64,000 nucleotides of DNA from Candidatus Woesearchaeota archaeon (GCA_016211215.1 JACQSR010000028.1:11423-75422); one strand, 5' to 3'. Numbered from the stretch's first letter, positions 24,735 to 44,131 are shown. Numbers and translations are program-made. Notes: generated from the letters alone by a model not told the origin.

Positions 24735-25097
24735 TTAGCCAATTATCCTCATCCTTTTCTCATCCGGCTTCTCCTTGAACAGCTCAGGCATCGGCACAAT
24801 GGATGCTCCAGCCTGCTTCAGCTTGTCTATAGCGCTCCCCGAAAACTGGTATGCAGATATTGTAAGCTTGTGGCTTATTGCGCCGCTGCCCAGCACCTTT
24901 CCCGGAACTATGATAAAGTCATTCTCCCTTGTCACCCTGGCAATCTTTCCAAGGTTTACATTTCTCCTCTGCCTCGAGGGCCTCTCCAGCTCAGCCGCAA
25001 GCTTCTTCCAAAGCGCGCAATTCTGCTCAATCGAAGCCTTCCTCAAACTAGCTATGACATCCCTAAGGTGCTCGTTTGAAGATCCTGTTCGCTTCAT
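24735..25097 (-). CDS. rpl18e: 50S ribosomal protein L18e (eL18)
   Basis: ...RRNVNLGKIARVTRENDFIIVPGKVLGSG... is the archaeal L18e pattern, and the operon position is conserved. Confidence 0.85.
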   Translation of the reverse strand: MKRTGSSNEHLRDVIASLRKASIEQNCALWKKLAAELERPSRQRRNVNLGKIARVTRENDFIIVPGKVLGSGAISHKLTISAYQFSGSAIDKLKQAGASIVPMPELFKEKPDEKRMRIIG

Positions 25098-25576
25098 GCT
25101 CTTAATCCCTCAATGTATTTTGAAACCTCAAATGGATTCCCTATGAAATCCATCTCCATCTTTTGCTCGTCGAGCCCCGAAAGCTCGAGCGTAATCTTCC
25201 CGACCCCAAGCAGGGGATATTTTTTCATCGTGACCCTCGTTATTCCTGAATAGGGTATTTCCTTTCCCTCATCCGAAGCGCCCTTGCACACGACCATCTT
25301 CTCCGGAAAGAAGAGGTACCTTGTGCCTTTTGCGCCTGAATACGAAATCCAAAGCACAGCTGTTATCGCAACTGCAATCATTGCCATTAACAGCATTCCC
25401 AGGTTTCCGAAGCTCGGAAAAAATCCCGGAAGCACTTCCTTTGCATCGCTGAATATTTTCAGGATACCCAGCGCCTTCATCATAACATACACAGCCAGCA
25501 CCGCCAAAACCGGGCCAAGCACTTTCATGCCCTGCACGGCCATTGCGCCCCTGACATCCGGTTTTATCTCATCCAT
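25094..25576 (-). CDS. membrane protein with bacterial-PH (bPH_2/YdbT-like) domain
   Basis: Two TM helices are followed by YLFFPEKMVVCKG...IPYSGITRVTMKK...GKITLEL. ORF 25094..25633 is trimmed to ATG 25576 because the extension overlaps the tRNA. Confidence 0.5.
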   Translation of the reverse strand: MDEIKPDVRGAMAVQGMKVLGPVLAVLAVYVMMKALGILKIFSDAKEVLPGFFPSFGNLGMLLMAMIAVAITAVLWISYSGAKGTRYLFFPEKMVVCKGASDEGKEIPYSGITRVTMKKYPLLGVGKITLELSGLDEQKMEMDFIGNPFEVSKYIEGLRA

Positions 25577-25600: not shown

Positions 25601-25710
25601 TGCGGGGGACGGGATTCGAACCCGCGCAACCACTAAGGTATACGGCCCTCAACCGTACTCATTAAGTCTTCAATTATTAGTTGAAATTGACCGGGCTCTG
25701 ACACCCCCGC
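25601..25710 (-). tRNA. tRNA-Leu(GAG) with about 25-nt non-canonical intron in the D-loop
   Basis: The acceptor stem is GCGGGGG/CCCCCGC with discriminator A, and the T-arm is GCGGG-TTCGAAT-CCCGT. The anticodon arm is TACGG-TTGAGGG-CCGTA, and the long variable arm is ACC-TTAGT-GGT. The D-stem TCA...TGA is interrupted after GAGCCCGGTCAA by TTTCAACTAATAATTGAAGACTTAA. Confidence 0.75.
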
Positions 25711-25711
25711 G

Positions 25712-26509
25712 CTAATCTTTTTGCTTCAATGACTTCTCAAAATCATTGAGCATGTTCTCGAGCACCTTAGCAGCCTCCTGCAAAACCTTTTTCGCATCAA
25801 GCTGTCCAAAAGTCTCTATGAAAAGTATTATGTCCTTATCCTGCTCCACTATGACTGCGCCTTCGCTGGGATTTTCCTCTACGCACACCTGTCCCAGATA
25901 ACCATCAACAATCGGGCTGCTTAGCGCATCTTTATTCTGCCTGAGCAGTCCCAATGTCCCCGGCGGGCATACCTCTGCCTTTTCCCTTGTCTTTTCATCA
26001 ACCTTCTCAAGCACAGTCAGCTTCGGCTTGTACTTGTAGTAAACATGAGCAGGTATCCACTTGGAATGAACCTTGCCTTTCCCTAAAACCGCTGTTGCCT
26101 CTATCTCAATTGATTGGCCTTTAAGCAGCTGGACTATTGGCATTTTTGGAAACGCAGGTTTTATTGCTGAATCCGCGCTCTTGATGTCCGACGCATAAAC
26201 AATCCCCGGCCCCTTGCCTTCCAGCGTTAGTTTCACCTGGCATCTTGCGCATCCCTTCCCTTCGCACTTGCATTCTTCCAGAAGATTGTAAGATTTAAGG
26301 TCTGTAGTCAAAGGCAGCAATCCCAGTCTGTGCCCCAGCATCTCGTCATAAAGCGCCGATGTGTTTTTCCTTACTTCAACATCCTCTATGGCCATCGTCG
26401 GGACTTCCTCCACGATAATCCTCCTTATAGTATTCAAAAAAACAGGAGTGGTATCCTTGAAGAGCAACGCAACCCTGTCCTTCTCCTTCTCCAAAAGCCT
26501 TGCTTCCAT
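25712..26509 (-). CDS. rpoD: DNA-directed RNA polymerase subunit D (Rpo3)
   Basis: TTPVFLNTIRRIIVEEVPTMAIEDVEV..NTSALYDEMLGHRLGLLPL matches the Rpb3/RpoD family, with a Cys cluster CKCEGKGCARC. The stop lies 1 nt from the tRNA 5' end. Confidence 0.9.
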   Translation of the reverse strand: MEARLLEKEKDRVALLFKDTTPVFLNTIRRIIVEEVPTMAIEDVEVRKNTSALYDEMLGHRLGLLPLTTDLKSYNLLEECKCEGKGCARCQVKLTLEGKGPGIVYASDIKSADSAIKPAFPKMPIVQLLKGQSIEIEATAVLGKGKVHSKWIPAHVYYKYKPKLTVLEKVDEKTREKAEVCPPGTLGLLRQNKDALSSPIVDGYLGQVCVEENPSEGAVIVEQDKDIILFIETFGQLDAKKVLQEAAKVLENMLNDFEKSLKQKD

Positions 26510-42938: not shown

Positions 42939-43187
42939 CTATTGCTCATCCTTATGGTACAAATCCAAAAAGATTACTTTATTCTCCGGTTTTAAGTACG
43001 CATAAGATATCCTGAATGGTTTGACGTAAACCTCCCGGGTGCCTTTTCTCGAATACCTCATTGGCTTGCCTGTTTCAGGTGATTCGATTATCTTTGCAAT
43101 TTGCTTCTTCACCCTTTCCCTGAGCCCATTATCCTTTATTTTTCCAATGTTCTTCAGGAAATCCGGGGGGTATACTACTTCTAGCAT
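42939..43187 (-). CDS. relE: RelE/ParE-family toxin
   Basis: The 82-aa protein contains ...KKQIAKIIESPETGKPMRYSRKGTREVYVKPFRISYAY...VIFLDLYHKDEQ. It overlaps the upstream antitoxin gene by 7 nt. Confidence 0.75.
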   Translation of the reverse strand: MLEVVYPPDFLKNIGKIKDNGLRERVKKQIAKIIESPETGKPMRYSRKGTREVYVKPFRISYAYLKPENKVIFLDLYHKDEQ

Positions 43188-43447
43188 TTAGAAAGCCTTT
43201 CAAGAAATTTGACGGCAGGCATAGATACGAATTCTCCTTTCTCGTAGCTTTTCCACGCATCCTCTGTTCTTTTCGCAAACTCAAAATCTTTTTCAAAATT
43301 CTTGTCCGCTTTGGTGGCCTTCTTTAGAATAATCTGGTCTTTGTTTTGTATTACGAGTATTTTATCCCCTTCATGCAAATCATCCCTCATTCCAGCAGGA
43401 ATAACCACCTGTCCCCTCGAACTCATCCTTGTTATTGCAACTTCCAT
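43181..43447 (-). CDS. AbrB/SpoVT-family antitoxin
   Basis: SSRGQVVIPAGMRDDLHEGDKILV is the AbrB swapped-hairpin motif. Confidence 0.75.
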   Translation of the reverse strand: MEVAITRMSSRGQVVIPAGMRDDLHEGDKILVIQNKDQIILKKATKADKNFEKDFEFAKRTEDAWKSYEKGEFVSMPAVKFLERLSKC

Positions 43448-43555: not shown

Positions 43556-44131
43556 CTACGGCCTCAGCCACCTAATCTCATAGTATGTAACATCCCCCTC
43601 GCCATCAACTATGCCTATCAAAAGGCGCTTCTTTGTCGAGTGCGCAACACGGTTTTTTGCCGCAAACTCGTACCACGTCAGCGTGGAGCCTTCATGCACC
43701 GGATATACAATCCACCTTGCATGGTCCTCTCCCGGTTTCACGCCCCTGTCGTAAACCCTGAAATCCGCCCCGAACTTAAGCGCAGTCTTGATTATGTATC
43801 CCCGATTTCTTATGTCCTTGAAAACGCAGTACCTAATCCAGAAGTTCGGTTCAAGCTTCGTTGACCTCTTGATGAAATCCTGCACCCCAAGCTTCTTCTT
43901 TTTGCCCTCGATTACCTCAATCTTGCCTTTTTCCAGAAGGTAAAGAGCCTCAAGAAGAGACAGCTGCACCCTTCCGTCGTCCAGAAGAGAGCCGTACCTG
44001 CTCGTGTTGAATAGTTCCCTTGCAGAGTCAGAATTTTCCGTCAGTATACGTTCCCGCGAAAATGTTGCACAGACAACAATTCTCTTTTCGGTATTTTCTG
44101 GCTCTGGCTCGCTTTTCGTTTTACGCGCCAT
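43556..44131 (-). CDS. endA: tRNA-splicing endonuclease (short, alpha-subunit-length form)
   Basis: ...LSLLEALYLLEKGKIEV... and the catalytic C-terminal domain IRNRGYIIKTALKFGADFRVY...AHSTKKRLLIG are present, in a 191-aa protein. Confidence 0.88.
   Translation of the reverse strand: MARKTKSEPEPENTEKRIVVCATFSRERILTENSDSARELFNTSRYGSLLDDGRVQLSLLEALYLLEKGKIEVIEGKKKKLGVQDFIKRSTKLEPNFWIRYCVFKDIRNRGYIIKTALKFGADFRVYDRGVKPGEDHARWIVYPVHEGSTLTWYEFAAKNRVAHSTKKRLLIGIVDGEGDVTYYEIRWLRP

Follow-up and report, generated by a model that had tools for sequence, protein, structure and literature searches.

A tRNA-Leu(GAG) gene with a probable D-loop intron downstream of rpoD in a Woesearchaeota genome, and the endonuclease that may splice it

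The window analysed here is a stretch of 64,000 nucleotides from the genome of a Candidatus Woesearchaeota archaeon (GCA_016211215.1, JACQSR010000028.1:11423-75422). The genome around it amounts to 1.06 Mb with 45% G+C at 84% completeness, and the relatives of its RpoD are found in Woesearchaeota/Nanoarchaeia (DPANN) genomes. On the minus strand the genes for S13, S4, S11 and RpoD are followed by a tRNA, a 160-aa ORF, and the genes for L18e, L13, S9 and RpoN (Table 1). The rpoD stop codon (TAG, 25714-25712) and G1 of the tRNA at 25710 are separated by one base (C, 25711), in agreement with the 1-nt distance given in the initial annotation. This spacing is particular to the genome; about 50 nt lie between the two genes in the closest relative examined. 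The 160-aa ORF starts 24 nt past A73 of the tRNA, behind a GGAG. Similar N-termini (M..(I/V)RPD(I/V)...) follow the tRNA at five related loci, and in other relatives L18e follows directly. The tRNA is probably co-transcribed with the ribosomal protein/RNA polymerase operon, from whose transcript RNase P and a 3′ endonuclease would free it; an internal promoter inside rpoD might serve it instead. Archaeal RNase P RNA is present in the genome (105.7 bits).

Early-1990s work on Haloarcula marismortui reportedly described a rpoD–tRNA(Leu)–L18e cluster as well. The S13-S4-S11-rpoD-tRNA(Leu)-L18e arrangement has been published for Asgard archaea, and the archaeal cluster that continues through L13 and S9 to rpoN has the gene order of the window, with tRNA-Leu between rpoD and L18e (PMC10833476). 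To this alpha-operon-like cluster the window adds the 160-aa ORF, the single-base spacing and an intron in the D-loop of the tRNA. Among 12 related public loci, a class II tRNA-Leu stands after rpoD in 10, those of an Aenigmatarchaeote and a Methanobacteriota genome among them, and tRNA-Leu(GAG) occupies the place in 29 of the 35 same-order genomes examined. The location of tRNA-Leu behind rpoD is ancient, conserved in archaea and already published.

Table 1. Features of the locus and of related tRNA and endonuclease genes. Coordinates count from the first letter of the window, except those prefixed with a contig (C).
Feature	Coordinates	Strand	Evidence or remarks
rpoD (RNA polymerase subunit D/Rpb3-like, 265 aa)	25712..26509	-	Pfam PF01000 + PF01193
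tRNA-Leu(GAG) gene	25601..25710	-	Rfam; ARAGORN after intron removal; covarying cloverleaf with orthologues
Exon 1, nt 1-24	25687..25710	-	acceptor 5′ strand, U8 G9, D-stem UCA, D-loop to G18 G19 U20 C20a A A
Central helix, exon strand GGUC (G18 G19 U20 C20a)	25689..25692	-	followed by the 5′ bulge AA|U (25688..25686)
Predicted intron, 24 nt, TTTCAACTAATAATTGAAGACTTA, D-loop 3′ end	25663..25686	-	splice-site rule + intronless orthologues
Inner hairpin h′, UUCAA-CUAAUAA-UUGAA, 5 bp, A/U-rich	25669..25685	-	kept in G003
Central helix, intron strand GACU	25665..25668	-	runs into the 3′ splice segment UA|A (25664..25662)
Exon 2, 62 nt	25601..25662	-	A22, D-stem UGA, anticodon/variable/T arms, acceptor 3′ strand, A73
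Anticodon GAG	25648..25650	-	
160-aa ORF, no Pfam family	25094..25576	-	between tRNA and L18e
L18e	24735-25097	-	downstream of 160-aa ORF
endA, 191 aa, N + C domains	43556..44131	-	Pfam PF02778 + PF01974
Long T-loop-intron tRNAs	C3:58108-58337, C16:11914-12077, C21:12884-13107, C25:5545-5808		
Long T-loop-intron tRNAs	C25:6344-6570, C26:34898-35089, C30:10748-10933, C34:3339-3544		
T-loop-intron tRNAs, shorter class			six genes besides the eight long

Read on the minus strand, 25710..25601 folds as a class II tRNA-Leu(GAG) gene with a 110-nt precursor body. With the insert in parentheses, the 5′ part is laid out as GCGGGGG-TG-TCAG-AGCCCGGTCAA-(TTTCAACTAATAATTGAAGACTTA)-A-TGA-G and the 3′ part as TACGG-TTGAGGG-CCGTA-TACCTTAGTGGTTGC-GCGGG-TTCGAAT-CCCGT-CCCCCGC-A. 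All seven base pairs of the acceptor stem are formed (GCGGGGG/CCCCCGC), the T arm (GCGGG-TTCGAAT-CCCGT) is of the GTTCGAATC type, and the anticodon arm (TACGG-TTGAGGG-CCGTA) presents a 7-nt loop, UUGAGGG, with U33 and G37. The perfect acceptor stem, the TTCGAAT and TTGAGGG loops and the long variable arm named in the initial annotation are all seen in the sequence, and the D stem, TCA...TGA, pairs only across the insert, as had been proposed. CCA is not encoded at the 3′ end. Archaeal tRNA-Leu is marked by A73 and a long arm; both occur here, together with orthology to intronless tRNA-Leu(GAG) genes. The anticodon loop of tRNA-Leu(GAG) in two relatives (G001 and G004) reads UCGAGGG, with C33 where U is almost universal.

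Standard tools pass over the gene. Default ARAGORN and the Rfam scan of the whole window at the gathering cut-off miss it, and a local, more permissive Rfam scan is required. In that scan RF00005 (gathering cut-off 29 bits) matches 25601-25710(-) exactly, at 38.6 bits and E 6e-7, leaving 32 nt of the D-loop unaligned; a whole-genome Rfam search recovers the same match. ARAGORN calls tRNA-Leu(GAG) once the insert is deleted, whether 24 or 25 nt are taken out. With introns allowed (-i), it calls a tRNA-Ile(AAU) in which the UUCAA-CUAAUAA hairpin region becomes the anticodon arm and a 21-nt intron lies at 36/37. CUAAUAA does resemble an anticodon loop, but the D stem of this alternative is mismatched and its anticodon stem forced, the loop reads CUCAUAG in the relative G003, and the Rfam alignment together with 17 intronless orthologues assigns the anticodon arm to GAG. 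The chance that the locus encodes tRNA-Ile(AAU) is negligible, and we discard this forced fold, with which the orthologues disagree. ARAGORN, one of the predictors named in the initial annotation, upholds Leu(GAG) on the deleted sequence and, with introns allowed, gives a call judged spurious on the intact one. That the fold itself is wrong, an option the initial annotation had kept, is excluded by the Rfam model, ARAGORN and the orthologue alignment, which agree on the anticodon and on the class II fold.

The boundaries of the insert follow from comparison and from the splice rule. Under the rule that cutting occurs after the second bulge base, the intron measures 24 nt, and its position is 21/22 or equally 20b/21, owing to an A repeat. 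The D-loop of the intronless orthologues reads GGTCAAATGA. Removal of 24 nt leaves an 86-nt spliced sequence, with the predicted mature D-loop AGCCCGGUCAAA and exon junction GGUCAA|AUGAG (GGUCAA|AUGAGUACGG), that aligns with the 17 intronless orthologues without a gap; removal of 25 nt would drop one base common to all the 86-nt orthologues. Since only the 24-nt excision gives the gapless alignment and agrees with the splice rule, the intron is taken as 25686..25663. The initial annotation had located it correctly and made it about one base too long (~25 nt), and its mature species of 85 nt is replaced by one of 86 nt. Aligned together, the spliced tRNA and the 17 orthologues share a class II cloverleaf, with compensatory change at 16 of its 26 pairs. 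Across the intron, the three D-stem pairs read GC7/UA6/CG4/AU1; CG18; AU12/GC5/CG1.

One relative, G003, carries the same intron. The two genes differ at 1 of 86 exon positions and at 3 of 24 intron positions, of which two belong to the loop of the hairpin and one turns an A-U pair into G.U, so that the insert changes about 10 times faster than the exons. No further copy of the intron occurs elsewhere in the genome, and a metagenome scan for more variants returned only the G003-type sequence. Covariation within the intron is accordingly minimal, and because only these two variants were found, support for the splice motif is drawn from analogous introns.

In the precursor, G18 G19 U20 C20a would pair with the GACU at the 3′ end of the intron (4 of 4 pairs) to make a 4-bp central helix. 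The 5′ site then lies in a proper bulge, AA|U, and beyond it stands the 5-bp hairpin UUCAA/UUGAA that the initial annotation had noticed inside the insert. The 3′ site, UA|A, has the central helix on one side and the 3-bp D stem on the other and lies opposite six unpaired bases (G13-C17a), and a search for an alternative pairing that would turn it into a true bulge returned none. A strict hBHBh′ motif has two 3-nt bulges on opposite strands with a 4-bp helix between them, each flanked by a helix; of these the locus has the 4-bp helix and the 5′ bulge but lacks a true bulge at the 3′ site. In the relaxed HBh′ form, a central helix, one bulge and an inner helix suffice, and the second site lies two bases beyond the helix on the opposite strand. 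The locus has the central helix, one proper bulge, the inner helix and a normal tRNA after removal of the 24 nt, so the predicted motif is relaxed HBh′ and not strict BHB. Modelling at the two junctions, as suggested in the initial annotation, does yield a bulge-helix-bulge-like motif, regular on the 5′ side and relaxed on the 3′ side. Thermodynamic folding fails to give the cloverleaf/BHB model: the minimum free energy fold of the precursor is a different one (-41.5 vs -33.7 kcal/mol), and the pair probabilities of the inner hairpin, 0.3-0.4, indicate marginal stability. For this reason the model relies on comparison.

The comparison is provided by six D-loop introns that share one register: those of the window gene, of the Leu(GAG) genes of G003, G023, G008 and G038, and of the organism's own tRNA-Gln(UUG). 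The recurring scheme runs D stem, a gap of 4-6 nt, GG[UC]C, [AA|N], hairpin, a partner pairing at 3-4 of 4 positions, [NA|N], D stem. The introns compared with that of the window are otherwise unrelated in sequence, and in every case the mature D-loop predicted is the one found in intronless relatives. The tRNA-Gln(UUG) gene (C15:52-141(-)), for instance, has a 17-nt intron at the same site with GGCC[AA|U]...GGCC[UA|U]; ARAGORN mislabels this gene as Leu(CAG).

Alternatively, the insert might be retained in the mature RNA as an enlarged D-loop with an extra hairpin. The hairpin could stick out of such a loop, the only EndA resembles enzymes of strict specificity, and excision is predicted from the DNA. 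In such an RNA, however, G18 and G19 would be tied up in pairing with GACU and could not form the tertiary pairs between D-loop and T-loop; the bulge and helix register is kept in six unrelated D-loop inserts and predicts the intronless sequence exactly; and the insert is wholly absent in relatives, which denies it a conserved structural role. We consider retention very improbable. The preferred reading is that the insert is excised: the single EndA would cut both sites of the precursor, and RtcB, which is present in the genome, would join the exons into the 86-nt class II tRNA.

Intron content at this locus varies strongly within the order. Sixteen of the 29 rpoD-linked tRNA-Leu(GAG) genes are intronless. 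An intron at the D-loop site of the window is found in four (G003, G023, G008 and G038), a T-loop intron in six (G001, G002, G007, G010, G023 and G005, the last with a locus that covers the tRNA only from the tail of its T-loop intron onward), a 37/38 intron in five, and an anticodon-stem intron in one; several genes have two introns. The anticodon-stem case (G012) is a 12-nt insert at about 29/30, the fourth intron position at the locus. Even within one genus the state differs, since G003 has the intron of the window and G001 and G002 have a T-loop intron instead. Another relative (G030) has a pair of direct repeats, each about 66 nt long, at a distance of about 130 nt upstream of tRNA-Leu(GAG), each starting with the first 7 bases of the tRNA (GCGGAGG) and continuing with the same hairpin-forming sequence.

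The organism appears to depend on the gene. CTT and CTC make up about 45% of the leucine codons in long ORFs, and blastn of the spliced tRNA against the assembly (84% complete) hits only this locus, with no paralogous A73 Leu(GAG). The gene is probably essential. Three other class II genes do carry leucine anticodons: C32:24002-24116(+) with GAG, C9:21610-21721(-) with CAG, and one near C25:55768(-) with GAG. Over their full length, the C32 and C9 genes show a body of the Ser type, with acceptor GCC[AG]GCG, G73, A37, interrupted T-loops, and a variable arm, TGYCC...GGRCT, like that of tRNA-Ser(CGA); the C25 gene agrees with them in the 5′ body over the length examined. In G003 the syntenic copy of the C32 gene has CAG in place of GAG. 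These genes are an oddity and not intact Leu(GAG) genes, although they could in principle share in CUN decoding. Their existence prompted consideration of a reassignment of CUN to serine. We reject it for conserved proteins, whose CTN codons align with leucine: the CTT, CTC and CTG codons of ribosomal proteins and RpoD fall mainly on Leu in distant orthologues.

The same observations bear on whether the locus is a decaying or disabled tRNA gene, broken by a 24-nt insertion, with CUY read by the Ser-bodied GAG/CAG tRNAs or by an unassembled Leu(GAG). The three additional genes, the incompleteness of the genome and the failure of standard predictors at the locus would fit this possibility. Decay, however, does not predict exons that are near-invariant against G003 while the insert evolves about ten times faster, nor a splice motif so placed that cutting there would regenerate precisely the mature sequence of the orthologues. 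Relatives have spliceable introns at four positions of the same locus, the other GAG/CAG tRNAs have G73, Ser-like arms and introns of their own, and CTN aligns with Leu. The pseudogene alternative of the initial annotation also presupposed an intact Leu(GAG) elsewhere, and the blastn search found no such A73 gene in the assembly. Loss of function is accordingly a far-fetched explanation. With good confidence, we interpret 25601-25710(-) as a real and functional single-copy tRNA-Leu(GAG) gene in its ancient position, with a D-loop intron that would be cut by the archaeal endonuclease.

Introns are the rule among the tRNA genes of this genome. Scans of the genome give about 35 tRNA genes, about 7 of which are intronless, so that about 80% are interrupted. 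At least 14 have a T-loop intron at 59/60, and these share one BHB register (TTCR/YGAA): T54-R57 pair with YGAA at all four positions in every case, with bulges of AA|N and, in most of them, AG|T, and the T stem forms the outer helix. At 13 and 14 nt, two of the 59/60 introns are too short to hold an inner helix and so are bulge-helix-loop-like; the tRNA-Val(UAC) gene has such a T-loop mini-intron of 14 nt. Eight long ones (90-156 nt) form a homologous family with conserved blocks across different tRNAs, which suggests that long T-loop introns have spread between genes.

The initial annotation listed three ways to account for a D-loop intron beside a lone endA gene: relaxed specificity of the enzyme, a second subunit encoded elsewhere, or a wrong fold. 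Its description of the only endA of the window, 191 aa and of the length of a homotetramer-type subunit, is confirmed; the ORF aligns with the alpha4 enzyme of M. jannaschii. The motifs with the catalytic Tyr, His and Lys (FRVY, DHARW and HSTKK) align with PDB 1A79, and the best PDB matches are the catalytic NEQ205 of N. equitans (6e-39) and the M. jannaschii homotetramer (6e-33). For the inventory of paralogs that had been recommended, Pfam searches with both the C and the N domain, phmmer and a custom profile all point to a single EndA gene in this genome. No second subunit was found in the genome by phmmer --max and the custom profile built from 40 sequences, the best non-EndA candidate being a PH0730-like/DUF4443 winged-helix protein. 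Used as query, the EndA of the window does detect the beta subunits known from N. equitans and M. kandleri, so a similar beta subunit would have been seen, but a crenarchaeal-type beta might escape these searches. Exactly one EndA is present in 38 of 40 relatives, closed genomes included. The option of a second subunit is thus left without support.

The loops to which broad specificity has been ascribed are missing from this enzyme. The CSL (L1) or ASL (L2) is an insert after a conserved YG that carries the key Lys; at this site the EndA has 9-10 residues fewer than A. pernix 3P1Z_B and S. tokodaii 2CV8_A, and the insert is absent from all 36 EndAs of the order. In N. equitans, NEQ205 has a basic insert at residues 90-98, with K93, K94, K96 and R97 (PMC3488258), which is the "L3" of Kaneta et al. 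The corresponding insert between the catalytic Tyr and His is likewise absent, the loop being 6 residues shorter than in NEQ205. It reads YDRGVKPGEDH (YDRG[VI]KPGEDH in the order) and has the same length as YERGANIDKEH of M. jannaschii, and this form without L3 is conserved across the 36 EndAs. The acidic loop before the last strand (L10 of M. jannaschii) is needed for the dimer-dimer contact. Its sequence is VD-GEGD here, VD-DEGD across the order and VD-ADGD in M. jannaschii; in NEQ205 it is shortened to VS-DK. An acidic loop of the M. jannaschii type would fit one subunit filling both roles of a homotetramer. The enzyme therefore bears the marks of the alpha4 type, namely one polypeptide of the ~180-aa class with both domains, the catalytic triad, no second subunit gene and the acidic loop.

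The endonuclease of M. jannaschii (1A79) is a single polypeptide of ~180-190 aa to which the EndA of the window aligns almost without gaps. It is the textbook example of strict BHB specificity and comes from a genome whose introns are few and canonical; the genome around the window has D-loop HBh′ introns and T-loop mini-introns. Since a wrong fold is excluded and a second subunit is unsupported, tolerance of relaxed motifs by this EndA seems the best remaining of the three options. Extended to the order, the proposal is that a single M. jannaschii-like EndA with neither specificity loop nor beta subunit would routinely cut relaxed motifs (the D-loop HBh′ sites and the 13-14-nt T-loop mini-introns without inner helix) in essential single-copy tRNAs. 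We put this forward tentatively, at slightly less than even probability.

That tRNA introns also occur at non-canonical positions, 20/21, 22/23, 29/30 and 59/60 among them, is well established (PMC4090602). A D-loop intron of this kind is already known, the closest case being that of tRNA-Glu(UUC) of M. kandleri, an HBh′ intron at 20b/21 (PMC5829648). It shares with the Leu(GAG) intron its place in the 3′ part of the D-loop, right at the end, the combination of one proper bulge with a non-bulge at the other site, and a host EndA without CSL or ASL. In contrast, the M. kandleri enzyme is (alpha-beta)2 whereas the genome of the window has one alpha-type gene only, the tRNA-Glu gene has a second, canonical intron whereas Leu(GAG) has one, and splicing in M. 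kandleri is backed by biochemistry and RNA-seq whereas the Leu(GAG) intron is predicted here from its DNA. In vitro, the 20b/21 intron is cut fast by A. pernix EndA and slowly by the loop-less M. kandleri EndA, and is not clearly removed by the alpha′2 EndA of A. fulgidus; alpha4 and alpha′2 enzymes are reported to handle relaxed motifs poorly (PMC5829648). Alpha4-type EndAs of DPANN archaea, one from a Woesearchaeote among them, accompany disrupted tRNA genes, which has been attributed to L3 (PMC5829648).

Thermoproteales, Nanoarchaeum and ARMAN/Micrarchaeota resemble this order in their introns outside 37/38, often several in one gene, in having most tRNA genes interrupted, and in a quick turnover of intron presence and absence between relatives. 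Their EndAs are (alpha-beta)2 with CSL, NEQ205 with its basic loop plus beta, or epsilon2 with ASL, and all of these are absent here. What the locus appears to add is one thing, the occurrence of relaxed motifs in essential tRNAs beside an EndA that has none of the known specificity loops. If a loop-less EndA does cut such motifs, a broad substrate range would be independent of the known loops and of subunit architecture, and this would run against the loop-centred model, which credits the DPANN alpha4 enzymes with L3. The locus offers a compact test substrate for that model, with a 24-nt HBh′ intron, a probably essential tRNA and a 191-aa loop-less enzyme. The orthologous Leu(GAG) genes, with introns at four sites in one order, also make a good series for the study of intron gain and loss.

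The most-used leucine isoacceptor of the organism is unseen by default tRNA finders and miscalled as Ile(AAU) with the intron option. With about 80% of the tRNA genes interrupted, reports of "missing tRNAs" in DPANN genomes largely reflect an artefact of detection. Near-identical copies of tRNA-His(GTG) are situated at or near contig ends (C4:22963-23035, C32:10-82 and C17:58-128), and this repeat probably breaks the assembly. Adjoining endA in the window, at 42939-43447(-), are two small overlapping ORFs of 82 and 88 aa, which, to judge by their sequences, look like a RelE-type toxin and an AbrB/SpoVT-type antitoxin.
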